Positions 42,772-63,640 are shown, counted from the first letter of the stretch. The stretch is 64,000 bases of DNA from an uncultured Candidatus Binatia bacterium (GCA_965200965.1 OZ241744.1:1088001-1152000), one strand, 5' to 3'. Numbers and translations: made by a program. The notes: generated by a model from the sequence alone, not told the origin.

Positions 42772-43752
42772 TCAAAGACGATCCAACCACGGCGCAAGTT
42801 CTCGAATCCATGCCTTTCTGAACTTCTCAAACGTGTACCCGGCCGCGGTCCGTCTGCCGCGGCGCACGAGCTTCATGGCCAGCGCATCGTCCAACAGCAG
42901 GCCGGCGAACAGATCGGCGAGCCGCGGAAAATCAGGATAGCCGCACGCCAAGGCATTCTTCCGGTTTCGGAAATAGCTTCCGCCACATCCGTGAAACCCG
43001 ACGACCGCGGTTCCACACAGCATGGCTTCCAGCGGTGGCAGCCCGAACCCTTCGATAGCGGACAGCCACAGAAAGTAACGGTGCCCGGACATCATGCGCA
43101 GCACCTCGGGATGTGGAGTATTGGGCGGGATGTGCGTCGGCGAAAACGTCACGCCAGGATGTCTGGCGTTCAGCATCGACGTGAAGTGATCGAGAAACTG
43201 CTCGCCGTACACCTTGACGCCGACCAGCACCGACCCTTCCGGCCGGTCTTCCCAAGTGGGCAAGGGCTGCGGCAGATGATCGTGATGGATGAACGGTGCG
43301 ATGACCGGCAGCCTCATGCCATAGGTCCGCCGAACGAACGCAGCGACGAACGGTGACACGGCGACATATTTATCGAAGAATCCATCAATGATCTCGAAGG
43401 TTTTCACGTCCTGGACATACATCAACTTCGAGCCGGGAAACGACAACCCCAGCATGAGACCGGAGAACGAAGGATTGCAGATCAGGACATCGTTTCGACC
43501 GGCCTGTTGTATCATCTCAGGCAGGCTGACTTTCCGGTTTGGTGGCTCATACGACCAGACGGCGTGGCTTTCCCTTTCCGCATCAACCTCTACCGCGACA
43601 AATTCATACCCCCATTCGTCGCATATGATTCTGCCCAGGTGGTAGGCCATGTAGGTGCCGCCATTCGGGATATGGGCACCCACGACATACAGGCGTCCTT
43701 GGCTGCCGCCAGCCGGCCTGGTATCCGTGCCTCGAATGTCGGCGTGTCTCAA
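42772..43752 (-). CDS. Glycosyltransferase (GT4/GT-B like)
   Basis: EGFGLPPLEAMLCG nucleotide-sugar-binding motif, GGTYMAY, YVQD. Confidence 0.8.
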   Translation of the reverse strand: MRHADIRGTDTRPAGGSQGRLYVVGAHIPNGGTYMAYHLGRIICDEWGYEFVAVEVDAERESHAVWSYEPPNRKVSLPEMIQQAGRNDVLICNPSFSGLMLGLSFPGSKLMYVQDVKTFEIIDGFFDKYVAVSPFVAAFVRRTYGMRLPVIAPFIHHDHLPQPLPTWEDRPEGSVLVGVKVYGEQFLDHFTSMLNARHPGVTFSPTHIPPNTPHPEVLRMMSGHRYFLWLSAIEGFGLPPLEAMLCGTAVVGFHGCGGSYFRNRKNALACGYPDFPRLADLFAGLLLDDALAMKLVRRGRRTAAGYTFEKFRKAWIRELAPWLDRL

Positions 43753-46272
43753 GAGCGTGCTCCCGATGAGGCCGGAACGGGCCAGCTCACCTGATCGGCC
43801 ACAGGAAATTCAACTGCCCAGACCGGCTTCTCGCTGGCAACCTGCCCGGTGCGGAGCCGTGCCAGAGGATAGGCCGGCAGCCGCACCGTCGCCAGACACT
43901 TGTCAGCAAACCGCGCCGCCTGCTGTACATGCGGCAGGTGCCGCCGGTGGAAGCTGAAATCCAGGACCGCAAACCCCAAGGACCGCTGCGCAGCGGCCAG
44001 CACCGCCCGGTCCCGGGGGAAGACATGCAGGAAGAAGCGCCCCCGCGTGTCCGCCCGCTGACACCCCTCTTTGACATACGTCAGGGTCCGCCCCTCCAGG
44101 TACAGGGCAAAGGCAGAGCGGGCCACCGGCGGGGCCGCCACCACCGCCCGGTATCGCGCCTCAAGCAGGTCGGTCGCACGCACGCCAGCAGCCGACCACG
44201 CCAGGGCAACGTGCCAGCGATCCACGCCCCCGGGGGCGATCAGGCGGGCTTCAAGGGTTTGGATCGCATACGGGGGCAGCAGGGGCCGGAGCAGACACGC
44301 CCCGTCAACGCGGACCCCGTAATCGGAAAAAATGAAGCCTCGCATCCAACGCCACGCGAGGCGGCCGGCAGCAGGACCCACCGTTTGCCTATCCCAGCCC
44401 TGGCCGAGGTTTGGCCTCCAACGCCACCCGGGGCGGCCAGCAGCGGCAGCGGGGTCCACGGGCACGACATGGACCACGAAACGCCCCCGCACATCGGCCG
44501 GCCGGCAGGGGGCCTTCACCCAGGTCAGGGTGGTCCCGTCCAGGTACAGGTCGAACGCCGAGCGGAGGAGGGGCGGCCCGGCGGTGGTGGCCCGGTAGAG
44601 TTGCCGGTAGCGCTCGACGGTGGCCGCGTCCACCAGGGCCGGGTCGCTTGCGCTCACCGTGAGGATGGTGTTGTTGTAGACTTGGCGGGTGTAGACAACG
44701 GGTGCGAAGGGGTGATCAAAGCGGTCTCCCCACCCAGTGAACACATGAGAGGTCACATAAAAGTCCCCCTCCTCCTCCATTCCATCGGCAAAGACGAGGC
44801 GACGCCGGTCTGCCTTGGGCAGGATGTCCCGGTTCATGGTGTACTGGAAGCCGGGACGGCCGCGGGGACGGTCCGGCACGAGAGAGATGGGTGAGGCGGG
44901 ATAGTGCTGGAGCAGATATTCCAGCCCCTCCCGGTACACCATCCGCCAGTAGTCCATGCCGTACTGCCCACGCAGATACTCGGGCGTACTCCGGTCCACC
45001 AGCCGGTTGAAATAGATGTACTGATGGGGATGAATCCCAACCATTTCGATGACCACGCCAGCCAGGCCAGCCACGGCCAGGCCATAGACACCGGCCCGCA
45101 GGGCCGGCCAGCGGCACACGCCAGCCAGCCGCCGCAGACCAGCCACGGCCAGCACACACAGCGGGGCGTAGAGGAAATACATCTGCCGCCAGCCGTTGTG
45201 GACATTGGCATTGAGGACGATGACGGCCCCAACGGGCAGGAGCACACAGGCCGCGAGCAGCCCCTCAAAGCGGGTGGTGGGGTTGCGGAGCAGCTCGCCG
45301 GGGTGGGTCAGAGTACGCCAGAGTACGCCAGCCGCCCCGATGAGGCTCAGCAGCAGCACGCCCGGCGGGGTGGTGATGGCCAGCCAGGTCGGAATGTAGT
45401 GCGCCGGAATGGCCGGCCAGTGGATGAGTTCGCCTTGAAAGAGCATAGGAGGACGGGTAGGGTGCTGGGAGAGGACTGCAATCGCGTCAAGCAGTTCCAG
45501 GGGATTGCTCCACAGATGGGGCGAGACCGCATACAGCGTCAAGACACTGGCCAGCCCGAACACCCCCAGCGTCCTCCCCACCTGCCGCCGCTCCGCCCGA
45601 TTTCCCGCCCGCACCCAATCCACTACCCGCATCACCATCACCGCCACAAACAATCCCCCACCCATGATGCGTAAGTTCGTTGCGACCCCCACCCCCACCC
45701 CACACAGCGCATACCCCCCCCCCCCGCTGCCACGCCCGGTGAATCAGGGCCAGACAGCCCAGGAAGGCCACCAGGAAGGGGATGTCCTTGGTGTTGAAAA
45801 ACGAGTGGGCATACAGCCGGGGATGGAGGACGAAGAGGCCGAGGGCCAGCAGGGCCAGCCAGCGGCTGCCGAACAGCCGGGCGGCCAGCCAGGCCGCGCC
45901 CCCGCCGCCAGCCAGAAAGCACAGGTGGGTGAGCAGATGGCGGCTCAAGTAGATGGCGCGGCTGTCGGTGAGGCCGAGCAGCCGCTCAACCAGCACCAGC
46001 GGCACTTCGAAGACAACGCCGTAGTAGCGGTTGTGGGGGGGACCGGGGGGGCCCAGGGTCTCGGTGTCGCCCAACGCATAGGCGACTGCCGTCTGGACAA
46101 TTCGGCGCTGATCTGTCTCGTCCCACGTCACCCCGTAATCGTCAAGGACGGCCATACCCACTACGGCCAGGACCGCCAGGGCCAGCAGAACACTGTGGCG
46201 GGCCACGAAGGCCACCGCCGCCGTGGACCAGCGGCCCACGCCCCGGACGACAGAGGGACGGCCGCTGGTCAT
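43749..46272 (-). pseudogene. Array unit 8 (last): GT-C-like glycosyltransferase with 2 C-terminal domains, frameshifted in a G12 tract
   Basis: Split into ORFs 45487-46272 and 43749-45698. The break is at C12 (45714-45725, + strand). Confidence 0.75.
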
Positions 46273-47966
46273 TGAGGGACTCCCGGCAGGGGCGGCCCGG
46301 CGGTGGTGGCCCGGTACAGTTGCCGGTAGCGCTCGGCGGTGGCCGCATCCACCATGGCCGGGTCGATCACGCTCACCGTGAGGATGGTGTTGTTGTAGAC
46401 TTGGCGGGTGTAGACAACGGGTGCGGAGGGGCGATCAAGACTGTAGCTGTGATCGGGCACATGAAAGTCTCCCTCCTCCTCCATTCCGTCGGCAAAGACG
46501 ATGCGACGCCGGGCTGCCTTGGGCAGGATACCCCGGTTCATGATGTACGGAGGGATGTGGCTCAGCACTATAGAGATAGGTGAGGCGGGATGGCGCTGGA
46601 GCAGATATTCCAGCCCCTCCCGGTACGCCGTCTCCCAATAGTCCATCTGGTACTGCCCACGCAGGTACTCGGGCGTGTGCCGGTCCACCAACCGGTTGAA
46701 ATAGAGGTACTGATGGGGATGAATCCCAACCATTTCGATGACCACACCAGCCAGGCCAGCCACGGCCAGGCCATAGACACCGGCCCGCAGGGCCGGCCAG
46801 CGGCACACGCCAGCCAGCCGCCGCAGACCGGCCACGGCCAGCAGACACAGCGGGGCGTAGAGGAAATACATGTGCCGCCAGCCATTGTAGACATTGGCAT
46901 TCAGGACGATGACGGCCCCAACGGGCAGGAGCACGCAGGCCACGAGCAGGCCCTCAAAGCGGGTGGTGGGGTTGCGGAGCAACTCGCCGGGGTGGGTCAG
47001 AGTCCGCCAGAGCACACCAGCCGTCCCGATGAGGCTCAGCAGCAGCACGCCCGGCGGGGTGGTGATGGCCAGCCAGGTCGGAATGTAGTGGGCCGGAATG
47101 GCCGGCCAGCGGATTGCCTCGCCTTGAAAGAGCATAGGAGGACGGTAAGGGTGCTGGGAGAGAACTGCAATCGCGTCAAGCAGTTCCAGCGGATTGCCCC
47201 ACAGATAGGGCGAGACCGCATACAGCGTCAAGGCACTGGCCAGCCCGAACACCCCCAGCGTCCTCCCCACCTGCCGCCGTTCCGCCCGACTCCCCGCCCA
47301 CACCCAATCCACCACCCGCATCACCATCACCGCCACAAACAATCCCCCACCCATGATGCGTAAGTTCGTTGCGACCCCCACCCCCACCCCACACAGCGCA
47401 TACGCCCCCACCCCCCCCCGCTGCCACGCCCGGTGAATCAGGGCCAGACAGCCCAGGAAGGCCACCAGGAAGGGGATGTCCTTGGTGTTGAAAAACGAGT
47501 GGGCATACAGCCGGGGATGGAGGACGAAGAGGCCGAGGGCCAGCAGGGCCAGCCAGCGGCTGCCGAACAGCCGGGAGGCCAGCCAGGCCGCGCCCCCGCC
47601 GCCGGCCAGAAAGCAGAGGTGGGTGAGCAGATGGCGGCTCAAGTGGATGGCGCGGCTGTCGGTGAGACCCAGCAGCCGCTCAACCAGCACCAGCGGCACT
47701 TCGAAGACAACGCCGTAGTAGCGGTTGTGGGAGGGACCGGGGGGGCGCAGGGTCTCGGTGTCGCCCAGCGCATAGGCGATTGCCGTCTGGGCAATTCGGC
47801 GTTGGGCTGTCTCGTCCCACGCCACCCCGTAATCGTCAAGGACGGCCACGCCCACCACGGCCAGGACCGCCAGGGCCAGCAGGACACTGTGGGCGGCCAC
47901 GAAGGCCACCGCCGCCGTGCCCCAGCCGGCCACGGACCGGGGAACGGAGGGACGCCCGCTGGTCAT
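46269..47966 (-). CDS. Array unit 7: GT-C-like glycosyltransferase, 565 aa, no C-terminal domain
   Basis: DDYG..WDE, YYG, HPRLYAHSFFNTKDIPF, YNGWRHMYFLY; ends TTAGPPLPGVPQ. Confidence 0.8.
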   Translation of the reverse strand: MTSGRPSVPRSVAGWGTAAVAFVAAHSVLLALAVLAVVGVAVLDDYGVAWDETAQRRIAQTAIAYALGDTETLRPPGPSHNRYYGVVFEVPLVLVERLLGLTDSRAIHLSRHLLTHLCFLAGGGGAAWLASRLFGSRWLALLALGLFVLHPRLYAHSFFNTKDIPFLVAFLGCLALIHRAWQRGGVGAYALCGVGVGVATNLRIMGGGLFVAVMVMRVVDWVWAGSRAERRQVGRTLGVFGLASALTLYAVSPYLWGNPLELLDAIAVLSQHPYRPPMLFQGEAIRWPAIPAHYIPTWLAITTPPGVLLLSLIGTAGVLWRTLTHPGELLRNPTTRFEGLLVACVLLPVGAVIVLNANVYNGWRHMYFLYAPLCLLAVAGLRRLAGVCRWPALRAGVYGLAVAGLAGVVIEMVGIHPHQYLYFNRLVDRHTPEYLRGQYQMDYWETAYREGLEYLLQRHPASPISIVLSHIPPYIMNRGILPKAARRRIVFADGMEEEGDFHVPDHSYSLDRPSAPVVYTRQVYNNTILTVSVIDPAMVDAATAERYRQLYRATTAGPPLPGVPQ

Positions 47967-50112
47967 TGAGAGACTCCCGGCAGGGGCCGCCCAGCCCCGC
48001 CTCGCTCCGGCAACGCCACGTCCACCGCCCAGCCCCCGCCCGCCTCAGCGACCTGCCCGGTGCGCAGCCGTGCCAGAGGATAGGCCGGCAGCCGCACCGT
48101 CGCCAGACACTTGTCAGCAAACCGCGCCGCCTGCTGCACATGCGGCATGGCGTGCCACCCGTCAAAACCGAAATCCAGGACCGCAAACCCCAAGGACCGC
48201 CGCGCAGCGGCCAGCACCGCCCGGTCCCGGGGGAAGACCTCCAGGAAGAAGCGCCCCCGCGTGTCCGCCGGCTGACACCCCGCTTTGACATACGTCAAGG
48301 TCCGCCCCTCCAGGTACAGGGCAAAGGCAGAGCGGGCCACCGGCGGGGCCGCCACCACCGCCCGGTACCGCGCCTCAAGCAGGTCGGTGGCACGCACGCC
48401 AGCAGCCGACCACGCCAGGGCAACGTGCCAGCGATCCACGCCCTCAGGGGCGACCAGGCGGGCTCTAAGGGTTCGGATCGCATAGGGGGGCAGCGGGGGC
48501 CGGAGCAGACACGTCCCGTCAAAGCGGACCCCGTAATCGTAAAAATCGAAATGCAGGATTTCAATGCCTAGCCCCGGCCGCCACCCGGGGCGGTCGGCAG
48601 CGGCAGCGGGGTCCACGGGCACCACATAGACCACGAAGCGCCCCCGCACATCGTCCACGCGGCAGGGGGCCTTCGCCCAGCCCAAGGTGGCCCCGTCCAG
48701 GTACAGGTCAAACTCTGAGCGGAGGAGAGGCGGCCCGGCTGTGGTGGCCCAGTAGAGTTGCCGGTAGCGCTCGGCGGTGGCCGCCAGCCGGCTGAAATAG
48801 AGGTGCTGGTAGGGATGAAGCCCAACCATTTCGATGACCACGCCAGCCAAGCCAGCCACGGCCAGGCCATAGACACCGGCCCGCAGGGCCGGCCAGCGAC
48901 ACACACCAGCCAGCCGCCGCAGACCAGCCACGGCCAGCACACACAGCGGGGCGTAGAGGAAATACATGTGCCGCCAGCCCTCGTAGACATTGGCATTGAG
49001 GACGATGACGGCCCCAACGGGCAGGAGCACACAGGCCACGAGCAGCCCCTCAAAGCGGATGGTGGGGTTGCGGAGCAACTCGCCGGGGTGCGTCAGAGTC
49101 CGCCAGAGCACGCCAGCCGCCCCGATGAGGCTCAGCAGCAGCACGCCCGGCGGGGTGGTGATGGCCAGCCAGGTCGGAATGTAGTGCGCCGGAAGGTCCG
49201 GCCAGCGGATGACCTCGCCTTGAAAGAGCATAGTAGGACGGTGAGAGTGCTGGGAGAGAACTGCAATCGCGTCAAGCAACTCCAAGGGATTGCCCCACAG
49301 ATAGGGCGAGACCGCATACAGCGTCAAGACACTGGCCAGCCCGAACACCCCCAGCGTCCTCCCCACCTGCCGCCGCTCCGCCCGATTTCCCGCCCGCACC
49401 CAATCCACCACCCGCATCACCACCACCGCCACAAACAATCCCCCACCCATGATGCGTAAGTTCGTTGCGACCCCCACCCCCACCCCACACAGCGCATACG
49501 CCCCCCCCCCCCCCGCTGCCACGCCCGGTGAATCAGGGCCAGACAGCCCAGGAAGGCCACCAGGAAGGGGATATCCTTGGTGTTGAAAAACGAGTGGGCA
49601 TACAGCCGGGGATGGAGGACGAAGAGGCCGAGGGCCAGCAGGGCCAGCCAGCGGCTGCCGAACAGCCGGGAGGCCAGCCAAGCCGCGCCCCCGCCGCCAG
49701 CCAGAAAGCACAGGTGGGTGAGCAGATGGCGGCTCAAGTAGATGGCGCGGCTGTCGGTGAGACCCAGCAGCCGCTCAACCAGGACCAGCGGTACTTCGAA
49801 GACGACACCGTAGTAGCGGAGGGGGGGACCGGGGGGGCGCAGGGTCTCGGTGTCGCCCAGCGCATAGGCGATTGCCGCTTGGCCGATCCCACGTTGATCC
49901 TTCGCCGAGTCCAGCGCCACCCCGTTCCAATATTCCCGATCCCCGTATTCCCGATCCCCGTCCCACAACACCCCGTAATCGTCAAGAACGGCCACGCCCA
50001 CCACGGCCAGGACGGCCAGGGCCAGCAGGACACTGTGGCGGGCCACGAAGGCCACCGCCGCCGTGCCCCAGCCGGCCACGGACCGGACGACAGAGGGACG
50101 CCCGCTGGTCAT
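47963..50112 (-). pseudogene. Array unit 6: GT-C-like glycosyltransferase, frameshifted in a G14 tract, with an internal deletion and a loop insertion
   Basis: Split into ORFs 49417-50256 and 47963-49711. The break is at C14 (49501-49514, + strand). Confidence 0.75.
49931..49960. repeat. 15-bp in-frame tandem duplication (GDREY x2)
   Basis: tattcccgatccccg twice. Confidence 0.9.
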
Positions 50113-53100
50113 TGAGAGACTCCCGGCAGAGGTCGCCCAGCCCCGCCTCGCTCCGGCAACGCCACGTCCACCGCCCAGCCCCCGCCCGCCCCAGCGACCT
50201 GCCCGGTGCGGAGACGCGCCAGAGGATAGGCGGGCAGCCGCACCGTCGCCAGACACTTGTCAGCAAACCGCGCCGTCTGCTGTACATGCGAAATGTCATG
50301 CCGCCACCAGTCAAAACCGAAATCCAGGACCGCAAACCCCAAGGACCGCCGCGCAGCGGCCAGCACCGCCCGGTCCCGGGGAAAGACATGCAGGAAGAAG
50401 CGCCCCCGCGTGTCCGCCCGCTGACACCCCGCTTTGACATACGTCAGGGTCCGCCCCTCCAGGTACAGGGCAAAGGCAGAGCGGGCCACCGGCGGGGCCG
50501 CCACCACCGCCCGGTATCGCGCCTCAAGCAGGTCGGTCGCACGCACGCCAGCAGCCGACCACGCCAGGGCGACGTGCCAGCGATCCACGCCCCCGGGGGT
50601 GATCAGGCGGGCTTCAAGCGTTTGGATCGCATACGGGGGCAGCGGGGGCCGGAGCAGACACGCCCCGTCAAGGTGGACCCCGTAATCGAAAAAGTCGAAA
50701 CGCAGGATCTCACGGCCTGACCTCGGCCGCCACACAGGGCGGCCGGCAGCAGCAGCGGGGTCCACGGGCACCACAGAGACCACGAAGCGCCCCCGCACAT
50801 CGGCCGGCCGGCAGGGGGCCTTCACCCAACTCAAGGTGGCCCCGTCCCGGTACAGGTCAAACGCCGAGCGGAACAGGGGCCGCCCGGCGGTGGTGGCCCG
50901 GTAGAGTTGCCGGTAACGCTCGGCGGTGGCCGCCACCACCGGGTTAAGCACGCGCTCGGTCGCAGTCACCCCAGCAGGGGTCCACTCAATGGCGACGTGC
51001 AGGCGCTCTATGTTCCCGGGGGCGACCATGTGGACTTCAAGGGCCCGGATCGCATAGGGGGGCAGCGGGTGCCGGATCAGACACGTCCCGTCAAGGGAGG
51101 CCCCGTAATCGGAGAAGTCGAAATGCAGGATCTCACGGCCTGCCCCCGGCCGCCACCCGGGGCGGCCGGCAGCGGCAGCAGGGTCCACGGGTATGACATC
51201 AACCGCAAAGCGCCCCTGCACATCGGCCGGCCGGCAGGGGGCCTTCACCCAACTCAAGGTGGCCCCCTCCCGGTACAGGTCAAACGCCGAGCGGAACAGG
51301 GGCCGCCCGGCGGTGGTGGCCCGGTAGAGTTGCCGGTAGCGCTCGGCGGTGGCCGCCACCACCGGGTTAAGCACGCGCTCGGTCGCAGTCACCCCAGCAG
51401 GGGTCCACTCAATGGCGACGTGCAGATGCTCTATGTCCCCGGGGGCGATCATGCGGACTTCAAGGGTTTGGATCGCATAGGGGGGCAGCGGGGGCCGGAG
51501 CAGACACGCCCCGTCAACGCGGACCCCGTAATCGAAAAAGTCGAAATGCAGGACCTCACGGCCTGCCCCCGGCCGCCACCAGGGGCGGCCGGCAGCAGCA
51601 GCGGGGTCCACGGGTATGACATCGACCACGAAGCGCCCCCGCATATCGGCCGGGTGACAGGGGGCCTTCACCCAGGTCAGGGTGGCCCCGTCCAGGTACA
51701 GGTCAAACGCCGAGCGGAGCAGGGGCCGCCCGGCGGTGGTGGCTTGGTAGAGTTGCCGGTAGCGCTCGGCGGTGGCCGCATCCACCACGGTCGGGTCGAT
51801 CGCGCTCACCGTGAAGATGGTGTTGTTGTAGACTTGGCGGGTGTAGACAACGGGTGCGAAGGGGAGATTACGGCTCTTGTCCCGCGGGCTGGACATGTGA
51901 AAGTCCACTTCCTCCCCTATTCCGTCAGCGAAGACAATGCGACGCCGGTCCGCCTTGGGCAGGATAGCCCAGTTCACGGAATACTCCGCTAGAGAGATGG
52001 GTGAGGCGGGATAGTGCTGGAACAGATATTCCAGCCCCTCCCGGTACGCCGTCCACCAGTAGTCCATGCTGTACTGCCCACGCAGGTACTCGGGCGTATT
52101 CCGGTCCACCAGCCGGTTGAAATAGAGGTGCTGGTAGGGATGAAGCCCCACCATTTCGATGACCACACCGGCCAGGCCAGCCACGGCCAAGCCATAGACA
52201 CCGGCCCGCAGGGCCGGCCAGCGGCACATGCCAGCCAGCCGCCGCAGACCGGCCACAGCCAGCAGACACAGCGGGGCGTAGAGGAAATACATCTGCTGCC
52301 AACCGTTGTAGACGCTGGCATTGAGGACGATGACAGCCCCAACGGGCAGGAGCACGCAGGCCACGAGCAGCCCCTCAAAGCGGGTGGTGGGGTTGCGGAG
52401 CCACTCGCCGGGGTGGGTCAGAGTCTGCCAGAGCACACCAGCCGTCCCGATGAGGCTCAGCAGCAGCACGCCCGGCGGGGTGGTGATGGCCAGCCAGGTC
52501 GGAATGTAGTGGGCCGGAATGGCCGGCCAGCGGATGAGTTCGCCTTGAAAGAGCATAGTAGGACGGTGAGAGTGCTGGGAGAGAACTGCAATCGCGTCAA
52601 GCAACTCCAAGGGATTGCCCCACAGATAGGGCGAGACCGCATACAGCGTCAAGACACTGGCCAGCCCGAACACCCCCAGCGTCCTCCCCACCTGCCGCCG
52701 CTCCGCCCGATTTCCCGCCCGCACCCAATCCACTACCCGCATCACCATCACCGCCACAAACAATCCCCCGCCCATGATGCGTAAGTTCGTTGCGACCCCC
52801 ACCCCCACCCCACACAGCGCATACGCCCCCACCCCCCCCCGCTGCCACGCCCGATGAATCAGGGCCAGACAGCCCAGGAAGGCCACCAGGAAGGGGATGT
52901 CCTTGGTGTTGAAAAACGAGTGGGCATACAGCCGGGGATGGAGGACGAAGAGGCCGAGGGCCAGCAGGGCCAGCCAGCGGCTGCCGAACAGCCGGGCGGC
53001 CAGCCAGGCCGCGCCCCCGCCGCCGGCCAGAAAGCAGAGGTGGGTGAGCAGATGGCGGCTCAAGTAGATGGCACGGCTGTCGGTGAGACCCAGCAGCCGC

Positions 53101-53387
53101 TCAACCAGCACCAGCGGCACTTCGAAGACAACGCCGTAGTAGCGGTCGTGGGGGGCACCGGGGGAGCGCAGGGTCTCGGTGTCGCCCAGCGCATAGGCGA
53201 TTGCCGCCTGGCCGATCCCACGTTGCTGATCCCCGTCCAACCCCACCGCGTAATCGTCAAGAACGGCCACGCCCACCACGGCCAGCACCGCCAGGGCCAG
53301 CAGGACACTGTGGCGGGCCACGAAAGCCACCGCTGCCGTGCCCCAGCCGGCCACGGACCGGGGAACGGAGGGACGCCCGCTGGTCAT
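50109..53387 (-). CDS. Array unit 5: GT-C-like glycosyltransferase, 1092 aa, 4 C-terminal domains
   Basis: Same scaffold as the other units. The ATG at 53387 overlaps the upstream stop. Confidence 0.82.
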   Translation of the reverse strand: MTSGRPSVPRSVAGWGTAAVAFVARHSVLLALAVLAVVGVAVLDDYAVGLDGDQQRGIGQAAIAYALGDTETLRSPGAPHDRYYGVVFEVPLVLVERLLGLTDSRAIYLSRHLLTHLCFLAGGGGAAWLAARLFGSRWLALLALGLFVLHPRLYAHSFFNTKDIPFLVAFLGCLALIHRAWQRGGVGAYALCGVGVGVATNLRIMGGGLFVAVMVMRVVDWVRAGNRAERRQVGRTLGVFGLASVLTLYAVSPYLWGNPLELLDAIAVLSQHSHRPTMLFQGELIRWPAIPAHYIPTWLAITTPPGVLLLSLIGTAGVLWQTLTHPGEWLRNPTTRFEGLLVACVLLPVGAVIVLNASVYNGWQQMYFLYAPLCLLAVAGLRRLAGMCRWPALRAGVYGLAVAGLAGVVIEMVGLHPYQHLYFNRLVDRNTPEYLRGQYSMDYWWTAYREGLEYLFQHYPASPISLAEYSVNWAILPKADRRRIVFADGIGEEVDFHMSSPRDKSRNLPFAPVVYTRQVYNNTIFTVSAIDPTVVDAATAERYRQLYQATTAGRPLLRSAFDLYLDGATLTWVKAPCHPADMRGRFVVDVIPVDPAAAAGRPWWRPGAGREVLHFDFFDYGVRVDGACLLRPPLPPYAIQTLEVRMIAPGDIEHLHVAIEWTPAGVTATERVLNPVVAATAERYRQLYRATTAGRPLFRSAFDLYREGATLSWVKAPCRPADVQGRFAVDVIPVDPAAAAGRPGWRPGAGREILHFDFSDYGASLDGTCLIRHPLPPYAIRALEVHMVAPGNIERLHVAIEWTPAGVTATERVLNPVVAATAERYRQLYRATTAGRPLFRSAFDLYRDGATLSWVKAPCRPADVRGRFVVSVVPVDPAAAAGRPVWRPRSGREILRFDFFDYGVHLDGACLLRPPLPPYAIQTLEARLITPGGVDRWHVALAWSAAGVRATDLLEARYRAVVAAPPVARSAFALYLEGRTLTYVKAGCQRADTRGRFFLHVFPRDRAVLAAARRSLGFAVLDFGFDWWRHDISHVQQTARFADKCLATVRLPAYPLARLRTGQVAGAGGGWAVDVALPERGGAGRPLPGVSQ
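50901..51746. repeat. Two 423-bp (141-aa) in-frame domain repeats in unit 5
   Basis: The ERYRQLY-encoding anchor recurs at 50901, 51324 and 51747. Confidence 0.9.
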
Positions 53388-55870: not shown

Positions 55871-58311
55871 TGAGAGACTCCCGGCAGGGGCCGCCCAGCC
55901 CCGCCTCGCTCCGGCAACGCCACGTCCACCGCCCAGCCCCCGCCCGCCCCAGCGACCTGCCCGGTGCGCAGCCGTGCCAGAGGATAGGCGGGCAGTTGTA
56001 CCGTCGCCAGACACTTGTCAGCAAACCGCGCCGCCTGCTGTACATGCGGCATGGCGTGCCGCCACCAGTCGTCAAAACTGAAATCCAGGACCGCAAACCC
56101 CAAGGACCGCCGCGCAGCGGCCAGCACCCCCCGGTCCCGGGGAAAGACATGCAGGAAGAAGCGCCCCCGCGTGTCCGCCCGCTGACACCCCGCTTTGACA
56201 TACGTCAGGGTCCGCCCCTCCAGGTACAGGGCAAAGGCAGAGCGGGCCACCGGCGGGACCGCCACCACCGCCCGGTATCGCGCCTCAAGCAGGTCGGTCG
56301 TGCGCACGCCAGCAGCCGACCACGCCAGGGCAACGTGCCAGCGATCCACGCCCCCGGGGGTGATCAGGCGGGCTTCAAGCGTTTGGATCGCATACGGGGG
56401 CAGCGGATGCCGGATCAGACACGCCCCGTCAAGGTGGACCCCGTAATCGGAAAAGCGGAAGGGCAGGATCTCACGGCCTGGCCCCGGCCGCCACCGGGGG
56501 CGGCCGGCAGCAGCAGCAGGGTCCACGGGCACCACATAGACCGTGAAGCGCCCCCACACATCGGCCAAGCGACAGGGGGCCTTCACCCAACTCAAGGTGG
56601 CCCCGTCCCGGTACAGGTCAAACGCCGAACGGAGCAGGGGCCGCCCGGCGGTGGTGGCCCGGTAGAGTTGCCGGTAGCGCTCGACGGTGGCCGGGTCGCT
56701 CGCGCGCACTACGAGGATGGTGTTGTTATAGACTTGGCGGGTGTAGACAATGGGTGCGAAGGGGCGATCATAGTGTGCTCCCCACCCTCTGAACCCACTA
56801 CTGTCCAGAGAAAAGTCCCCCTCCTCCACTCCGTCGGCAAGGATGATACGACGCCGGTCCGCCTTGGGCAGGATAGCCCGGTTCATGATGTACGGAGGGA
56901 TGCGGTCCGGCACTAGAGAGATGGGTGAGGCGGGCTGGCGCTGGAGCAGATATTCCAGCCCCTCCAGGTACGCCGTCTCCCAGGAGTCCATCTGGTACTG
57001 CCCACGCAGGTACTCGGGCGTACTCCGGTCCACCAGCCGGTTGAAATAGAGGTGCTGGTGGGGATGAAGCCCAACCATTTCGATGACCACACCGGCCAGG
57101 CCAGCCACGGCCAGGCCATGGACACCGGCCCGCAGGGCCGGCCAGCGGCACACGCCAGCCAGCCGCCGCAGACCAGCCACGGCCAGCAGACACAGCGGGG
57201 CGTAGAGGAAATACATGTGCCGCCAGCCATTGTAGACATTGGCATTCAGGACGATGACAGCCCCAACGGGCAGGAGCACGCAGGCTACGAGCAGCCCCTC
57301 AAAGCGGGTGGTGGGGTTGCGAAGCAACTCGCCGGGGTGGGTCAGAGTCTGCCAGAGCACGCCAGCCGCCCCGATGAGGCTCAGCAGCAGTACGCCCGGC
57401 GGGGTGGTGATGGCCAACCAGGTCGGAATGTAGTGGGCCGGAATGGCCGGCCAGCGGATTGCCTCGCCTTGAAAGAGCGTAGGAGGACGGCTAGGGTGCT
57501 GGGAGAGAATTGCAATCGCGTCAAGCAACTCCAAGGGATTGCCCCACAGATAGGGCGAGACCGCATACAGCGTCAAGACACCGGCCAGCCCGAACACCCC
57601 CAGCGTCCTCCCCACCTGCCGCCGTTCCGCCCGACTCCCCGCCCGCACCCAATCCACCACCCGCATCACCACCACCGCCACAAACAATCCCCCACCCATG
57701 ATGCGTAAGTTCGTTGCGACCCCCACCCCCACCCCACACAGCGCATACGCTCCCACCCCCCCCCGCTGCCACGCCCGATGAATCAGCCCCAGACAGCCCA
57801 GGAAGGCCACCAGGAAGGGAATGTCCTTGGCGTTGAAAAACGAGTGGGCATACAGCCGGGGATGGAGGACGAAGAGGCCGAGGGCCAGCAGGGCCAGCCA
57901 GCGGCTGCCGAACAGCCGGGAGGCCAGCCAGGCCGCGCCCCCGCCGCCGGCCAGAAAGCACAGGTGGGTGAGCAGATGGCGGCTCAAGTGGATGGCGCGG
58001 CTGTCGGTGAGACCCAGCAGCCGCTCAACCAGCACCAGCGGCACTTCGAAGACAACGCCGTAGTAGCGGTTGTGGGGGGGACCGGGGGGGCGCAGGGTCT
58101 CGGTCTCGCCCAGCGCATAGGCGATTGCCGCTTGGCCGCGCCCGCGTTGCAGCTCCTCGTCCACCCCCACTCCGTAATCGTCAAGGACGGCCAAGCCCAC
58201 CACGGCCAGCACCGCCAGGGCCAGCAGGACACTGTGGCGGGCCACGAAAGCCACCGCCGCCGTGCCCCAGCCGGCCACGGACCAGGGGACAGAGGGACGC
58301 CCGCTGCTCAT
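55867..58311 (-). CDS. Array unit 3: GT-C-like glycosyltransferase, 814 aa, 2 C-terminal domains
   Basis: Same scaffold; ATGA overlap. Confidence 0.82.
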   Translation of the reverse strand: MSSGRPSVPWSVAGWGTAAVAFVARHSVLLALAVLAVVGLAVLDDYGVGVDEELQRGRGQAAIAYALGETETLRPPGPPHNRYYGVVFEVPLVLVERLLGLTDSRAIHLSRHLLTHLCFLAGGGGAAWLASRLFGSRWLALLALGLFVLHPRLYAHSFFNAKDIPFLVAFLGCLGLIHRAWQRGGVGAYALCGVGVGVATNLRIMGGGLFVAVVVMRVVDWVRAGSRAERRQVGRTLGVFGLAGVLTLYAVSPYLWGNPLELLDAIAILSQHPSRPPTLFQGEAIRWPAIPAHYIPTWLAITTPPGVLLLSLIGAAGVLWQTLTHPGELLRNPTTRFEGLLVACVLLPVGAVIVLNANVYNGWRHMYFLYAPLCLLAVAGLRRLAGVCRWPALRAGVHGLAVAGLAGVVIEMVGLHPHQHLYFNRLVDRSTPEYLRGQYQMDSWETAYLEGLEYLLQRQPASPISLVPDRIPPYIMNRAILPKADRRRIILADGVEEGDFSLDSSGFRGWGAHYDRPFAPIVYTRQVYNNTILVVRASDPATVERYRQLYRATTAGRPLLRSAFDLYRDGATLSWVKAPCRLADVWGRFTVYVVPVDPAAAAGRPRWRPGPGREILPFRFSDYGVHLDGACLIRHPLPPYAIQTLEARLITPGGVDRWHVALAWSAAGVRTTDLLEARYRAVVAVPPVARSAFALYLEGRTLTYVKAGCQRADTRGRFFLHVFPRDRGVLAAARRSLGFAVLDFSFDDWWRHAMPHVQQAARFADKCLATVQLPAYPLARLRTGQVAGAGGGWAVDVALPERGGAGRPLPGVSQ

Positions 58312-60779
58312 TGAGGGACCCCCGGCAGGGGTCGCCCAGCCCCGCCTCGCTCCGGCAACGCCACGTCCACCGCCCAGCCCCCGCCCGCCCCAGCGACCTG
58401 CCCGGTGCGCAGCCGTGCCAGAGGATAGGCGGGCAGTTGTACCGTCGCCAGACACTTGTCAGCAAACCGCGCCGCCTGCTGTACATGCGGCATGGCGTGC
58501 CGCCACCAGTCGTCAAAACTGAAATCCAGGACCACAAACCCCAAGGACCGCCGCGCAGCGGCCAGCACCGCCCGGTCCCGGGGGAAGACCTCCAGGAAGA
58601 AGAGCCCTTGCGTGTCCGCCCGCTGACACCCCGCTTTGACATACGTCAGGGTCCGCCCCTCCAGGTACAGGGCAAAGGCAGAGCGGGCCACCGGCGGGGC
58701 CGCCACCACCGCCCGGTACCGCGCCTGAAGCAGGTCGGTGGCGCGCACGCCAGCAGCCGACCACGCCAGGGCGACGTGCCAGCGATCCACACCCCCGGGG
58801 GTGATCAGGCGGGCTTCAAGGGTTTGGATCGCATAGGGGGGCAGCGGGGGCCGGAGCAGACACGTCCCGTCAAGGCGGCCTCCATAATCGGAAAAGCCGA
58901 AATGCAGAATCTCACGGCTTGGCCCCGGCCGCCACCCGGGGCGGCCAGCAGCGGCAGCGGGGTCCACGGGCACGACATAGACCACGAAGCGCCCCCGCAC
59001 ATCGGCCGGCCGGCAGGGGGCCTTCACCCAGGTCAGGGTGCTCCCCTCCAGGTACAGGTCAAACGCCGAGCGGAGCAGGGGCGGCCTGTCTGTTGTGGTC
59101 CGGTAGAGCTGTTGGTAGCGCTCGGCGGTGGCCTCATCCACCAAGGCCGGGTCACTCGCACTCACCGTGAGGATGGTGTTGTTGTAGACTTGGCGGGTGT
59201 AGACAATGGGCATGAAGGGGCGATCATAACGCTCTCTCCACCCTCTGAACGCACGACTGTTCAGAGAAAAGTCCCCCTCCTCCTCCTCCACTCCGTCGGC
59301 AAAGATGATGCGACGCCGGTCCGCCTTGGGCAGGATAGCCCGGTTCATGGTGTACGGATGACCATTGGGATGGTCCGGCACTAGAGAGATAGGTAAGGCG
59401 GGATAGTGCTGGAGCAGATATTCCAGCCCCTCCCGGTACACCGTCCGCCAGTAGTCCATGCCGTACTGCCCACGCAGATACTCGGGCGTATTCCGGTCCA
59501 CCAGCCGGTTGAAATAGAGGTGCTGGTAGGGATGAAGCCCAACCATTTCGATGACCACACCGGCCAGGCCAGCCACGGCCAAGCCATGGACACCGGCCCG
59601 CAGGGCCGGCCAGCGGCACATGCCAGCCAGCCGCCGCAGACCAGCCACGGCCAGCAGACACAGCGGGGCGTAGAGGAAATACATGTGCCGCCAGCCATTG
59701 TAGACATTGGCATTCAGGACGATGACGGCCCCAACGGGCAGGAGCACGCAGGCCACGAGCAGGCCCTCAAAGCGGGTGGTGGGGTTGCGGAGCAACTCGC
59801 CGGGGTGGGTCAGAGTCTGCCAGAGCACACCAGCCGTCCCGATGAGGCTCAGCAGCAGCACGCCCGGCGGGGTGGTGATGGCCAGCCAGGTCGGAATGTA
59901 GTGCGCCGGAATGGCCGGCCAGCGGATTGCCTCGCCTTGAAAGAGCATAATGGGATGGTGAGAGTGCTGGGAGAGAACTGCAATCGCGTCAAGCAACTCC
60001 AAGGGATTGCCCCACAGATAGGGCGAGACCGCATACAGCGTCAAGACACTGGCCAGCCCGAACACCCCCAGCGTCCTCCCCACCTGCCGCCGTTCCACCC
60101 GATTTCCCGCCCGCACCCAATCCACCACCCGCATCACCACCACCAGCACAAACAATCCCCCGCCCATGATGCGTAAGTTCGTTGCGACCCCCACCCCCAC
60201 CCCACACAGCGCATACGCCCCCACCCCCCCCCGCTGCCACGCCCGGTGAATCAGGGCCAGACAGCCCAGGAAGGCGACCAGGAAGGGGATGTCCTTGGCG
60301 TTGAAAAACGAGTGGGCATACAGCCGGGGATGGAGCACGAAGAGGCCGAGGGCCAGCAGGGCCAGCCAGCAGCTGCCGAACAGCCGGAAGGCCAGCCAGG
60401 CCGCCCCCCCGCCGCCAGCCAGAAAGCACAGGTGGGTGAGCAGATGGCGGCTCAAGTAGATGGCGCGGCTGTCGGTGAGACCCAGCAGCCGCTCAACCAG
60501 CACCAGCGGCAATTCGAAGACAACGCCGTAGTAGCGGTTGTGGGGGGGACCGGGGGGGCGCAGGGTCTCGGTGTTGCCCAGCGCATAGGCGATTACCGCC
60601 TGGCCGCGCCCGCGTTGCTGATCCTCGTCCCACGCCACCCCGTAATCGTCAAGGACGGCCACGCCCACCACGGCCAGCACCGCCAGGGCCAGCAGGACAC
60701 TGTGAGCGGCCACGAAAGCCACCGCCGCCGTGCCCCAGCCGGCCACGGACCGGGGAACGGAGGAACGCCCGCTGCTCAT
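58308..60779 (-). CDS. Array unit 2: GT-C-like glycosyltransferase, 823 aa, 2 C-terminal domains
   Basis: Same scaffold; ATGA overlap. Confidence 0.82.
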   Translation of the reverse strand: MSSGRSSVPRSVAGWGTAAVAFVAAHSVLLALAVLAVVGVAVLDDYGVAWDEDQQRGRGQAVIAYALGNTETLRPPGPPHNRYYGVVFELPLVLVERLLGLTDSRAIYLSRHLLTHLCFLAGGGGAAWLAFRLFGSCWLALLALGLFVLHPRLYAHSFFNAKDIPFLVAFLGCLALIHRAWQRGGVGAYALCGVGVGVATNLRIMGGGLFVLVVVMRVVDWVRAGNRVERRQVGRTLGVFGLASVLTLYAVSPYLWGNPLELLDAIAVLSQHSHHPIMLFQGEAIRWPAIPAHYIPTWLAITTPPGVLLLSLIGTAGVLWQTLTHPGELLRNPTTRFEGLLVACVLLPVGAVIVLNANVYNGWRHMYFLYAPLCLLAVAGLRRLAGMCRWPALRAGVHGLAVAGLAGVVIEMVGLHPYQHLYFNRLVDRNTPEYLRGQYGMDYWRTVYREGLEYLLQHYPALPISLVPDHPNGHPYTMNRAILPKADRRRIIFADGVEEEEGDFSLNSRAFRGWRERYDRPFMPIVYTRQVYNNTILTVSASDPALVDEATAERYQQLYRTTTDRPPLLRSAFDLYLEGSTLTWVKAPCRPADVRGRFVVYVVPVDPAAAAGRPGWRPGPSREILHFGFSDYGGRLDGTCLLRPPLPPYAIQTLEARLITPGGVDRWHVALAWSAAGVRATDLLQARYRAVVAAPPVARSAFALYLEGRTLTYVKAGCQRADTQGLFFLEVFPRDRAVLAAARRSLGFVVLDFSFDDWWRHAMPHVQQAARFADKCLATVQLPAYPLARLRTGQVAGAGGGWAVDVALPERGGAGRPLPGVPQ

Positions 60780-63640
60780 TGAGAGACTCCCGGCAGGGGC
60801 CGCCCAGCCCCGCCTCGCTCCGGCAACGCCACGTCCACCGCCCAGCCCCGGCCCGCCCCAGCAACCTGCCCGGTGCGCAGCCGTGCCAGAGGATAGGAGG
60901 GCAGTTGTACCGTCGCCAGACACTTGTCAGCAAACCGCGCCGCCTGCTGTACATGCGAAATGTCATGCCGCCACCAGTCAAAACCGAAATCCAGGACCGC
61001 AAACCCCAAGGACCGCCGCGCAGCGGCCAGCACCGCCCGGTCCCGGGGAAAGACATGCAGGAAGAAGCGCCCCCGCGTGTCCGCCCGCTGACACCCCGCT
61101 TTGACATACGTCAGGGTCCGCCCGTCCAGGTAGAGGGCAAAGGCGGAGCGGGCCACCGGCGGGGCCGCCACCACCGCCCGGTACCGCGCCTCAAGCAGGT
61201 CGATGGCACGCACGCCAGCAGCCGACCACGCCAGGGCAACGTGCCAGCGATCCACGCCCCCGGGGGTGATCAGGCGGGCTTCAAGCGTTTGGATCGCATA
61301 GGGGGGCAGCGGATGCCGGATCAGACACGCCCCGTCAAGGTGGACCCCGTAATCGGAGAAGTCGAAATGCCGGATCTCACGGCCTGGCCCCGGCCGCCAC
61401 CGGGGGCGGCCGGCAGCAGCAGCAGGGTCCACGGGCACCACATAGACCACGAAGCGCCCCTGCACATCGGCCGGCAGGCAGGGGGCCTTCACCCAACTCA
61501 AGGTGGCCCCGTCCAAGTACAGGTCGAACTCTGAGCGGAGGAGGGGCGGCCCGGCGGTGGTGGCCCGGTACAGTTGCCGGTAGCGCTCGGCGGTGGCCCC
61601 GTCCACCGGGTCAAGCACGCGCTCGGTCGCAGTCACCCCAGCAGGGGTCCACTCAATGTCGACGTGCAGGCGCTCTATGTCCCCGGGGGCGACCATGCGG
61701 ACTTCAAGGGCGTGGATCGCATAGGGGGGCAACGGGTGCCGGAGCAGACACGCCCCGTCAACGCGGACCCCGTAATCGGAAAAGCCGAAATGCAGGACCT
61801 CACGGCCTGCCCCCGGCCGCCACCTGAGATGGCCGGCAGCGGCAGCGGGATCCACAGGTATGACATCGACCGCGAAGCGCCCCCGCACATCGGCCGGCCG
61901 GCAGGGGGCCTTCACCCAGGTCAGGGTGGCCCCCTCCAGGTACAGGTCAAACGCCGAGCGGAGCAGGGGCGGCCCCGCGGTGGTGGCCCGGTACAGTTGC
62001 CGGTAGCGCTCGACGGTGGCCGCATCCACCACGGTCGGGTCAATCGCGCTCACCGTGAAGATGGTGTTGTTGTAGACTTGGCGGGTGTAGACAACGGGTG
62101 CGAAGGGGCGATCACGCCTCTTGTCCCACGGGTTGGATATGTGATCGGTCACATGAAAGTCCACCTCCTCCTCTATTTCGTCAGCGAAGACAATGCGACG
62201 CCGGTCCGCCTTGGGCAGGATAGCCCGGCTCATGGAACGATTCACTAGAACGGGTGAGGCGGGATAGTGCTGGAGCAGATATTCCAGCCCCTCCCGGTAC
62301 GCCGTCTCCCAGCGTCCCTCGTCATACTGCCCACGCAGGTACTCGGGCGTGTGCCGGTCCACCAGCCGGTTGAAATAGAGGTGCTGGTAGGGATGAAGCC
62401 CGACCATTTCGATGACCACGCCAGCCAGGCCAGCCACGGCCAGGCCATAGACACCGGCCCGCAGGGCGGGCCAGCGGCACACGCCAGCCAGCCGCCGCAG
62501 ACCAGCCACGGCCAGCAGACACAGCGGGGCGTAGAGGAAATACATCTGCCGCCAGCCATTGTAGACATTGGCATTGAGGACGATGACGGCCCCAACGGGC
62601 AGGAGCACGCAGGCCACGAGCAGCCCCTCAAAGCGGGTGGTGGGGTTGCGGAGCCACTCGCCGGGGTGGGTCAGAGTCTGCCAGAGCACGCCAGCCGCCC
62701 CGATGAGGCTCAGCAGCAACACGCCCGGCGGGGTGGTGATGGCCAGCCAGGTCGGAATGTAGTGCGCCGGAATGGCCGGCCAGCGGATGACCTCGCCTTG
62801 AAAGAGCATAGGAGGACGGTAAGGGTGCTGGGAGAGAACTGCAATCGCGTCAAGCAGTTCCAGCGGATTGCCCCACAGATAGGGCGAGACCGCATACAGC
62901 GTCAAGGCACTGGCCAGCCCGAACACCCCCAGCGTCCTCCCCACCTGCCGCCGCTCCGCCCGATTTCCCGCCCGCACCCAATCCACTACCCGCATCACCA
63001 TCACCGCCACAAACAATCCCCCACCCATGATGCGTAAGTTCGTTGCGACCCCCACCCCCACCCCACACAGCGCATACGCCCCCACCCCCCCCCGCTGCCA
63101 CGCCCGGTGAATCAGGGCCAGACAGCCCAGGAAGGCCACCAGGAAGGGAATGTCCTTGGTGTTGAAAAACGAGTGGGCATACAGCCGGGGATGGAGGACG
63201 AAGAGGCCGAGGGCCAGCAGGGCCAGCCAGCGGCTGCCGAACAGCCGGGAGGCCAGCCAGGCCGCCCCCCCGCCGCCGGCCAGAAAGCACAGGTGGGTGA
63301 GGAGATGGCGGCTCAAGTAGATGGCGCGGCTGTCGGTGAGACCCAGCAGCCGCTCAACCAGCACCAGCGGCACTTCGAAGACAACGCCGTAGTAGCGGTT
63401 GTGGGAGGGACCGGGGGGGCGCAGGGTCTCGGTGTCGCCCAGCGCATAGGCGATTGCCGCCTGGGCAATTCGGCGCAGGGCTTGCTCGTCCACCCCCACC
63501 CCGTAATCGTCAAGAACGGCCAGGCCCACCACGGCCAGCACCGCCAGGGCCAGCAGGACACTGTGGCGGGCCACGAAAGCCACCGCCGCCGTGCCCCAGC
63601 CGGCCACGGACCGGGGAACGGAGGGACGCCCGCTGCTCAT
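60776..63640 (-). CDS. Array unit 1: GT-C-like glycosyltransferase, 954 aa, 3 C-terminal domains
   Basis: Same scaffold, with one extra 423-bp repeat (anchors at 61568 and 61991). Confidence 0.82.
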   Translation of the reverse strand: MSSGRPSVPRSVAGWGTAAVAFVARHSVLLALAVLAVVGLAVLDDYGVGVDEQALRRIAQAAIAYALGDTETLRPPGPSHNRYYGVVFEVPLVLVERLLGLTDSRAIYLSRHLLTHLCFLAGGGGAAWLASRLFGSRWLALLALGLFVLHPRLYAHSFFNTKDIPFLVAFLGCLALIHRAWQRGGVGAYALCGVGVGVATNLRIMGGGLFVAVMVMRVVDWVRAGNRAERRQVGRTLGVFGLASALTLYAVSPYLWGNPLELLDAIAVLSQHPYRPPMLFQGEVIRWPAIPAHYIPTWLAITTPPGVLLLSLIGAAGVLWQTLTHPGEWLRNPTTRFEGLLVACVLLPVGAVIVLNANVYNGWRQMYFLYAPLCLLAVAGLRRLAGVCRWPALRAGVYGLAVAGLAGVVIEMVGLHPYQHLYFNRLVDRHTPEYLRGQYDEGRWETAYREGLEYLLQHYPASPVLVNRSMSRAILPKADRRRIVFADEIEEEVDFHVTDHISNPWDKRRDRPFAPVVYTRQVYNNTIFTVSAIDPTVVDAATVERYRQLYRATTAGPPLLRSAFDLYLEGATLTWVKAPCRPADVRGRFAVDVIPVDPAAAAGHLRWRPGAGREVLHFGFSDYGVRVDGACLLRHPLPPYAIHALEVRMVAPGDIERLHVDIEWTPAGVTATERVLDPVDGATAERYRQLYRATTAGPPLLRSEFDLYLDGATLSWVKAPCLPADVQGRFVVYVVPVDPAAAAGRPRWRPGPGREIRHFDFSDYGVHLDGACLIRHPLPPYAIQTLEARLITPGGVDRWHVALAWSAAGVRAIDLLEARYRAVVAAPPVARSAFALYLDGRTLTYVKAGCQRADTRGRFFLHVFPRDRAVLAAARRSLGFAVLDFGFDWWRHDISHVQQAARFADKCLATVQLPSYPLARLRTGQVAGAGRGWAVDVALPERGGAGRPLPGVSQ

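Follow-up and report, generated by a model that had tools for sequence, protein, structure and literature searches.

The window analysed here is a stretch of 64,000 nucleotides (G000:C1:1,088,001-1,152,000) from the genome of an uncultured Candidatus Binatia bacterium (G000), which consists of a single contig of 3.62 Mb and is 99.3% complete. Between positions 43,749 and 64,000 its minus strand carries eight complete units, plus the end of one more, from an array of head-to-tail GT-C (glycosyltransferase fold C) genes, near-identical copies whose variation is concentrated in short segments that are exchanged between them. This array (array B, units B01-B13) holds 13 such genes, extends past the window end through B01-B05 and occupies genome positions 1,131,700-1,165,200. 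A second set of 13 units (array A, A01-A13) lies about 860 kb away at 271,700-305,600, giving a total of 26 near-identical units, with the two arrays taking about 1.9% of the genome. Searches of the whole genome with blastn and tblastn found no further copies of the membrane part and no partial cassettes outside arrays A and B. A fraction of 0.35-0.44 of the sampled sequence words of G000 was present in ten sequencing runs, four of which are labelled sponge metagenome.

In each unit a PMT_2-like membrane domain is joined by a periplasmic domain and by a beta-sandwich domain of about 130 residues in 0-4 copies. The units match the Pfam PMT_2 family; among the 23 array units listed, 22 score above the PF13231 cut-off. 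Stop and start codons overlap as ATGA in 18 of the 20 units with a standard start, at junctions that could be resolved, and 22 of the 26 units are open to their end. One and the same run of G carries the frameshifts of A08, B11 and B13, and B02 is out of frame near its 3' end, while the terminal domains are absent from B12 and the periplasmic domain is absent from both A08 and B11, which were excluded from the 24-unit analyses reported below.

Amino-acid variation among the 24 units is clustered, the variance of the means of 10-residue windows being 0.0235 compared with a maximum of 0.0091 in 10,000 shuffles (p=1e-4). It falls into seven segments with 17-25 distinct alleles each among the 26 units; at the DNA level, these alleles are patchworks of few codons with in-frame insertions and deletions. 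The initial annotation, made on the window alone and numbering B05-B13 as units 0-8, had claimed variation at fixed short sites, and the clustering agrees with this claim. The sites that it named were all recovered; two segments (after TETL and in VLN..MYF) were missing from its list, and it had noticed neither the rest of array B beyond the window nor any of array A. The alleles that it reported as common to several units are present in the sequence, namely GVGVDEQALRRIAQ in B06 and B09, GPSHNR and SQHPYRPPM in B06 and B12, SQHSHRPTM in B10 and B11, YQMD and IPPYIMNR in B08 and B12, FDWWRHDISH in B06 and B10, FDDWWRHAMPH in B05, B07 and B08, and FSFHRR in B09 and B13.

Table 1. Array units, variable segments and other features (window positions unless the contig is named)
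Feature	Position	Strand	Remark
B05, 3' end only	63637..64000	minus	array runs on beyond window with B01-B05
B06, 954 aa, GT-C core and 3 beta-sandwich domains	60776..63640	minus	stop overlaps next start (ATGA)
B07, 823 aa, GT-C core and 2 beta-sandwich domains	58308..60779	minus	unit used for structure model
B08, 814 aa	55867..58311	minus	
B09, 828 aa	53384..55870	minus	
B10, 1092 aa, 4 beta-sandwich domains	50109..53387	minus	442-nt tract identical with A03 of array A
B11, frameshift in G14 run; segments 5-7 (periplasmic domain) deleted	47963..50112	minus	local duplication lengthens segment 1
B12, 565 aa, without beta-sandwich domain	46269..47966	minus	
B13, final unit of array; frameshift in G12 run	43749..46272	minus	stop overlaps start of GT4 gene
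Segment 1 of B07, after DDY, around invariant D51	60591..60641	minus	
Segment 2 of B07, TETL..RYYG, first outer loop	60534..60560	minus	
Segment 3 of B07, NPLE..SQH..FQGE..PAHY, long outer loop after helix 7	59910..59996	minus	
Segment 4 of B07, VLN..MYF, around W363-R364	59682..59711	minus	
Segment 5 of B07, after RGQ; overlaps DYWG motif of the family	59433..59465	minus	
Segment 6 of B07, YLL..ILPK	59334..59411	minus	model residue 470 = AglB 550 (WWDYG position)
Segment 7 of B07, after GDF	59202..59267	minus	model 512 = AglB K618; 507 = PglB 568 (DK/MI position)
Variable loop in last beta-sandwich domain of B07, DDWWRHAMPH type	58485..58514	minus	few alleles, common to several units
G run of B11, out of frame	49501..49524	minus	most units: G9-T-G5 or G9-T-G3
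G run of B13, out of frame	45713..45735	minus	
GT4 (family 4) glycosyltransferase gene coupled to array end	42772..43752	minus	
O-antigen-ligase-like (Wzy_C) gene, overlaps GT4 gene	40796..42811	minus	
Distant PMT_2 gene, carries the beta-sandwich domain once	38425..40515	minus	
Other carriers of the beta-sandwich domain	G000:C1:790,082-794,962; window 38425-40515		

The sharing of alleles had been described as non-tree-like, and no single tree fits the units. The pairwise homoplasy index (PHI) gave p=0.0003 (0 of 3000 permutations) in every set, namely all 24 units, the seven complete units of the window, either array by itself and the framework codons by themselves, and the observed z of -15.3 lies outside the range of -2.8 to 1.4 obtained in 25 single-tree simulations with site rates kept in place. 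In approximately unbiased (AU) tests all 30 cross-segment trees were rejected, as was the whole-gene tree for all six segments (p<0.003); since short segments overfit in these tests, weight was placed on the single-tree simulation instead. Of the site pairs lying <10 nt apart, a proportion of 0.35 is incompatible; the figure is 0.57 at 30-60 nt and just 0.64 beyond 800 nt, the linkage signal being mostly lost inside 30-60 nt. Identical runs longer than in all 200 permutations were seen in 98 of 276 unit pairs (uncorrected), the longest identical tracts being 442 nt between A03 and B10, across arrays, and 274 nt between B05 and B08. The segmental exchange between copies that the initial annotation had put forward is upheld by PHI and the simulations.

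This exchange also links the two arrays. Mean identity is 0.915 between arrays and 0.916-0.919 within them, irrespective of distance, and a bias of exchange towards neighbours was rejected, adjoining units being no more similar than remote ones. The ends of A10-A12 consist of the tail of B13 followed by the first bases of the GT4 gene after B13 (shown for A10, with the same tails in the others), and array A has therefore received DNA from the end of array B. At the junction A10/A11 (G000:C1:279,150-279,500), units A11-A13, like A02, start with a remnant of the GT4 gene start, a record of this transfer from the end of B to A. Short-tract exchange within and between two old arrays is the genetic mechanism, and very little doubt is attached to this conclusion.

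Several candidate causes or triggers of the variation were tried and rejected. Loss of mismatch repair is one of them, MutS (two matches), MutL (two) and RecA being all present; two separate mutS-mutL pairs were observed (C1:1,238,627 and 3,305,706; 1,235,469 and 3,301,126). The arrays show an enrichment of motifs for G-quadruplexes, the trigger known from pilE, with 49 in 67.6 kb; these motifs do not lie at positions common to the congener G007 described below and consequently give no support to a pilE-type trigger. A diversity-generating retroelement (DGR) was rejected because all four bases vary alike (variable columns: A 48/60, C 80/117, G 80/107, T 43/64) and the alleles differ by insertions and deletions. 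No intact reverse transcriptase gene was found in G000, where the sole PF00078 match has an internal stop and lies 1.25 Mb away; this broken reverse-transcriptase-like gene (L082:1048-2421) is of lower GC content. Predicted internal promoters (3 against 1.8 by chance) and terminators (11 against 12.5 by chance) in the arrays were uninformative.

The arrays also hold 26 of the genome's 84 runs of G or C of at least nine, each unit having a G run of the G9-T-G5 type. The T of this run has been lost in four units, three of which are those out of frame (A08, B11 and B13). The run is not kept in G007. In a sister assembly, the equivalent of A08 has an interrupted, in-frame run and that of B01 the same pure in-frame run, and the frameshifts at the G run may be the result of slippage or of sequencing error.

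This sister assembly came from a protein search that returned 19 proteins without a whole match to an own unit; two of these were pieces of own broken genes, and the 17 compared belong to a different assembly of a very close strain. Seven of them match one own unit in every segment, six differ in one or two segments (one of these is A13 with segment 5 of A06) and the remaining four are new mosaics. Chimeric assembly, which the initial annotation had considered as another source of the mosaics, is judged unlikely given that seven of 17 proteins reproduce one unit exactly in their combination of segments. Single segments recur without any difference on contigs of runs from three studies (e.g. 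49,862-49,975, 56,735-56,878 and 59,197-59,333), one run possibly being the source; among the 32 pieces listed, contigs (from four runs) measure at most 168 nt and are too short to phase two segments.

At E<=1e-30 the family was present in three of 40 relatives. The congener G007 has at least 49 units in three stretches, 41 of them intact, which take 3% of its genome; 49 is a minimum because two of its contigs begin inside the second array. Its arrays occupy the same two loci, one between pheS and the Omp85/TamB-like pair and the other between the carbamoyltransferase gene and the GT4-Wzy_C-PMT_2 genes, and the arrays therefore predate the split of the species. In the tree, the 41 G007 units are separated from a single clade that comprises all 24 units of G000 (support 1.0), and such species-wise grouping at old loci is concerted evolution acting across both loci. 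PHI was likewise strongly negative in G007 (z -16.1), and site variability is correlated between the two species (rho 0.55 over 502 columns, maximum of the shifted null 0.26). Beyond the genus, at least three copies occur in 15 of 51 loci of named genomes, from Spirochaetia, Gammaproteobacteria, Vicinamibacterales, Dehalococcoidia, Caldilineaceae and Longimicrobiales, lineages which are typical of sponges. The paralogues of other genomes vary preferentially at the same sites in nine of ten sets (rho 0.25-0.45), one set having two sequences only. In genome G014, TMEM260-like mannosyltransferase genes (L022:6302-7861, L023:3983-5542) flank one of three small arrays.

The presence of two species allowed selection to be measured without circularity, variable sites being defined in one species and the ratio of nonsynonymous to synonymous substitution rates (dN/dS) measured in the other. 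The most variable class gave a dN/dS of 1.83 in G007 (bootstrap 95% 1.29-2.56; 29 codons) and of 1.41 in G000 (bootstrap 95% 0.98-2.11; 42 codons), the latter interval including 1, while looser variability thresholds gave 0.93-1.34 and conserved sites 0.40 and 0.21. A maximum likelihood (ML) codon model on one tree yielded 2.84 and 1.08 for the variable sites of G007 and G000 respectively and 0.25 and 0.15 for the conserved ones, values which recombination may bias. The framework is under purifying selection (dN/dS 0.15-0.40). Over all seven segments of G000, the corresponding polymorphism ratio pN/pS was 0.225/0.227 (0.99), compared with 0.022/0.093 in the framework. Taken together, these estimates support positive selection on the loops of the congener and leave it marginal, hence not established, in G000; the diversifying selection proposed by the initial annotation is borne out in part.

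The AlphaFold2 model of B07 (predicted local distance difference test, pLDDT, 91.4; predicted template modelling score, pTM, 0.88) has 11 membrane-length helices. A sequence search of solved structures gave no match, and the closest folds were chicken ALG12 (Z 23.6, 426 residues aligned, root-mean-square deviation 5.3), ArnT (Z 22.7; 352 residues, 4.2), AglB (Z 21.4; 418 residues, 7.2), Stt3 (21.4) and Pmt4 (20.9). The array units are accordingly predicted from the model to be GT-C membrane glycosyltransferases of the PMT_2 / ArnT clan. Eight residues of catalytic type (D45, D51, R152, N160, K162, D163, R203 and W363) do not vary in any of the 65 units of the two species, which are about 58% identical, R364 being kept in 63 of 65 and E52 in 56 of 65. 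The acidic residue D51, at the start of the first outer loop, is also kept in 37 of 37 shorter relatives and by its position would be the equivalent of AglB D47. The DYWG motif presents a different picture, each position being kept in 31-34 of the 37 shorter relatives, while among the array units D is found in 39 of 65 and Y in 20 of 65.

With the topology read from the helices of the B07 model, all 38 sites that are variable in both species are extracytoplasmic and none lies in the membrane or inner parts (261 of 502 columns are outside), as the initial annotation had anticipated. Segment 1 flanks D51 and segment 4 flanks W363-R364. Structural alignments end at model residue 470 = AglB 550 (7e9s), 512 = AglB 618 (5gmy) and 507 = PglB 568 (3rce). 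As reported, Asp552 and Lys618 of AglB lie near the peptide site, with WWDYG and DK/MI building the Ser/Thr pocket (PMC8342417), and AglB K618 is equated with PglB I572 (PMC7226087). Both motifs are absent from the units, and the positions aligned with them fall in segments 6 and 7. From these end points, and not from coordinates, it is predicted that the acceptor pocket is where segments 6 and 7 lie; the seven variable loops together are predicted to line the putative substrate cleft beside the catalytic-type residues.

The terminal domain was modelled as a beta-sandwich (pLDDT 92.3). It has no Pfam family and no clear relative was found among known structures, the best match being CBM9 (Z 7.1, none >=8), with none at E<=0.001 in Foldseek and 0.76 in the Atlas. 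This disulfide-type domain of about 130 residues (window 58350-58748) was also observed on three other G000 proteins and at 306 places in the fetched loci.

Downstream, array B runs into the GT4 and Wzy_C genes, followed by genes for SGNH acyltransferases, an initiating sugar transferase, a methyltransferase, another GT4 enzyme and a sulfotransferase; in window 29261-38591, four SGNH/AlgX-like acyltransferase genes surround the initiating sugar transferase gene. Farther off, at 790-5612, genes for the specificity and restriction subunits of a type I restriction-modification system were observed. Upstream of array B is a carbamoyltransferase-like gene (the Pfam match is for the congener's gene), and array A is placed between pheS and the Omp85/TamB-like pair.

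Directly upstream of array B lies a broken gene for a PgfS/GtrB-like polyprenyl-phosphate sugar synthase (genome 1,165,200-1,165,700; L083:1170-1786, minus), whose 3' end is replaced by the arrays' common tail and whose best match is PgfS (E 3.8e-21). Enzymes of the PgfS type synthesise the undecaprenyl-phosphate sugar with which GT-C enzymes modify proteins or polysaccharides (10.1101/2024.05.05.592596). The gene is intact in G014, and intact and directly upstream of the family gene in three other loci (L030, L032 and L065), while about 40 residues are left in G007. Oddly, the cognate synthase has been lost in the very two genomes whose arrays are largest; more distant synthase candidates remain in G000 at 625,365 and 2,284,820.

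The reading preferred here, with a probability of roughly 0.45, is that through their loops the copies may differ in the acceptors to which they transfer sugar when decorating a cell-surface glycan, the arrays being a co-expressed panel of lipid-sugar transferases. Tandem amplification gave rise to the two 13-gene arrays with overlapping stop and start codons. Tracts of tens to a few hundred bases have been exchanged, probably by RecA-dependent gene conversion and unequal crossing-over, homogenising the framework in each species and re-dealing the loop alleles. Amino-acid change in the loops has been favoured, as seen in the congener and marginally in G000, with the catalytic-type residues fixed and the loops predicted to surround the periplasmic active site and acceptor pocket. 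The copies may be co-expressed as an operon, with a polyprenyl-phosphate sugar as likely donor, and may add the sugar to different positions or modified forms of the surface polysaccharide of the neighbouring genes. The outcome would be a standing panel of enzymes in each cell, changing slowly between strains.

Several observations weigh against this glycan-decorating panel. Array A has no adjoining glycan genes, the cognate PgfS/GtrB-like gene is broken in G000 and reduced to those 40 or so residues in the congener, and a GtrA-type flippase (PF04138) had no match in G000. At sites chosen independently, the dN/dS of G000 amounts to 1.08-1.41 and its interval takes in 1, and pS is raised in the loops too (0.227 vs 0.093 in the framework). 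The pocket placement of segments 6 and 7 is drawn solely from alignment end points, and a polysaccharide has few positions for 26-49 enzymes.

Peptides, on the other hand, would supply enough distinct acceptors for dozens of enzymes, and the acceptors could be proteins, the arrays then forming a panel of protein O-glycosyltransferases each with its own preferred peptide regions in proteins that are secreted or exposed at the surface. The place at which oligosaccharyltransferases bind the peptide corresponds to segments 6 and 7, and the remnant upstream of array B matches PgfS best; streptococcal PgfS and the GT-C enzyme PgfM1 glycosylate Ser/Thr-rich regions of proteins (10.1101/2024.05.05.592596). 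These points are countered by the coupling of array B to polysaccharide genes, by WWDYG and DK/MI themselves not being conserved and by the top fold matches, ALG12 and ArnT, the top Z scores being close. The acceptors of ALG12 and ArnT are a lipid-linked glycan or lipid A. Protein acceptors are, on balance, unlikely yet deserve serious consideration.

Positive selection with invariant catalytic-type residues would fit equally well if all copies performed one reaction and the loops were escaping an antagonist, such as a phage protein, a competitor toxin or a host inhibitor, with copy number providing dosage and cover. The deeper synonymous divergence of the loops is likewise compatible with long-kept alleles. 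LpxC is present in G000, however, and the loops are therefore likely periplasmic and shielded by the outer membrane; escape would also be expected to replace the susceptible form rather than to keep 26 forms per cell. This possibility consequently appears quite unlikely. A somewhat poorer prospect is relaxed constraint, whereby redundancy would have freed the loops and ordinary concerted evolution would shuffle neutral variants. The pN/pS of 0.99 over the seven segments of G000, the ML value of 1.08 at independent sites and the damage to several copies are what it predicts; the congener's ratios of 1.83 (1.29-2.56) and 2.84 at sites chosen in G000, the family-conserved DYWG among the altered sites and the purifying selection on the framework make it improbable.

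The copies might even be binding proteins or decoys without transferase activity, with antibody-like loops on a GT-C scaffold. The broken synthase in the two genomes with the largest arrays, intact in G014, and the change of E52 beside D51 in nine of 65 units are in its favour, but the presence of other polyprenyl-sugar synthase candidates and the eight invariant catalytic-type residues in two species of about 58% identity render it very improbable. Antigenic variation, with silent copies supplying sequence to a single expressed locus or with the G run acting as an on-off switch for the copies, is suggested by mosaics of few codons resembling those of vlsE and tprK (PMC4534519) and by three of 26 units being out of frame at that run. 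It is hardly credible here, considering that most units are open with stop-to-start overlaps, that the genome has no partial cassettes elsewhere, that the congener has not kept the run, and that alleles are unchanged in the runs of three studies and in all segments of seven sister proteins. Finally, repeats of 90% identity can be mis-joined, and some G-run frameshifts, like the single-base insertions scattered in the congener, have the appearance of sequencing errors, but an assembly chimera or adenine-targeted mutagenesis by a DGR can practically be set aside, because the other assembly has the same segment combinations, the pattern recurs in a second species, variable columns involve all four bases and the sole reverse transcriptase match is broken and remote.

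Gene-conversion diversification in bacteria is known mainly for the exposed antigens of pathogens and is here found in the predicted acceptor cleft of an enzyme. It bears on how dense communities of sponge symbionts vary their surfaces with respect to phages and host phagocytosis, in a type of array at which short-read assemblies break. The 65 natural variants on a fixed scaffold also constitute a test set for the determinants of acceptor specificity in GT-C enzymes. A bolder and rather doubtful extension would see in these arrays a diversification system of general use among sponge symbionts. Its enzyme family, amplified independently in several phyla, would draw dozens of specificities per cell from antibody-like acceptor-cleft loops via gene conversion, would glycosylate own surface proteins or incoming phage or host molecules, and in this genus would have been uncoupled from its original donor synthase.

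No published description of this GT-C family or array was found among the titles and abstract beginnings surveyed, a scope that does not extend to subscription journals and supplements. With the solved GT-C enzymes ALG12/ALG9, ArnT, AglB/PglB/STT3 and PMT (PDB 9s6t, 5f15, 3waj, 6p25), the units have three features in common (Z 20-24), namely the membrane fold, the acidic residue with which the first outer loop starts, and an alpha/beta domain in the periplasm. They differ from them in the absence of any sequence match, in lacking WWDYG and DK/MI, whose positions are hypervariable here, in the 0-4 appended beta-sandwich domains without Pfam family and in the 26-49 copies per genome. O-antigen glucosylation is the work of GtrB/GtrC. 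The resemblance to that system and to streptococcal PgfS/PgfM1 protein glycosylation (10.1101/2024.05.05.592596) lies in a polyprenyl-phosphate sugar synthase gene placed directly upstream of a GT-C gene. Those systems have one or two GT-C genes, whereas here the gene is amplified and shuffled, the synthase is broken and GtrA was not found in G000. The mycobacterial arabinosyltransferases EmbC/EmbA/EmbB and AftD are of similar GT-C fold (Z 12-17) and are likewise tandem paralogues with appended carbohydrate-binding domains, the domain appended here matching CBM9 weakly (Z 7.1). EmbC, EmbA and EmbB are three old paralogues with fixed roles, and the Emb/AftD enzymes are not known to form a hypervariable recombining array.

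The vertebrate UGT1 variable-exon clusters also represent a tandem glycosyltransferase panel, for which PMC1885805 treats gene conversion and hypervariable regions; these are eukaryotic soluble-donor enzymes with spliced variable exons, unrelated in fold and organisation. The closest parallel in pattern is offered by vlsE, tprK and msp2, where fixed variable regions in a constant framework, short tracts and within-region mosaics are likewise reported, and where a surface antigen is expressed from one site that draws on silent cassettes (PMC4534519). The present arrays, unlike these, are made up mostly of complete, coupled genes, their product being a predicted enzyme of the inner membrane, and change slowly, strains sharing most units. 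The arrays work like segmental antigenic variation, yet without silent cassettes and not as a DGR.

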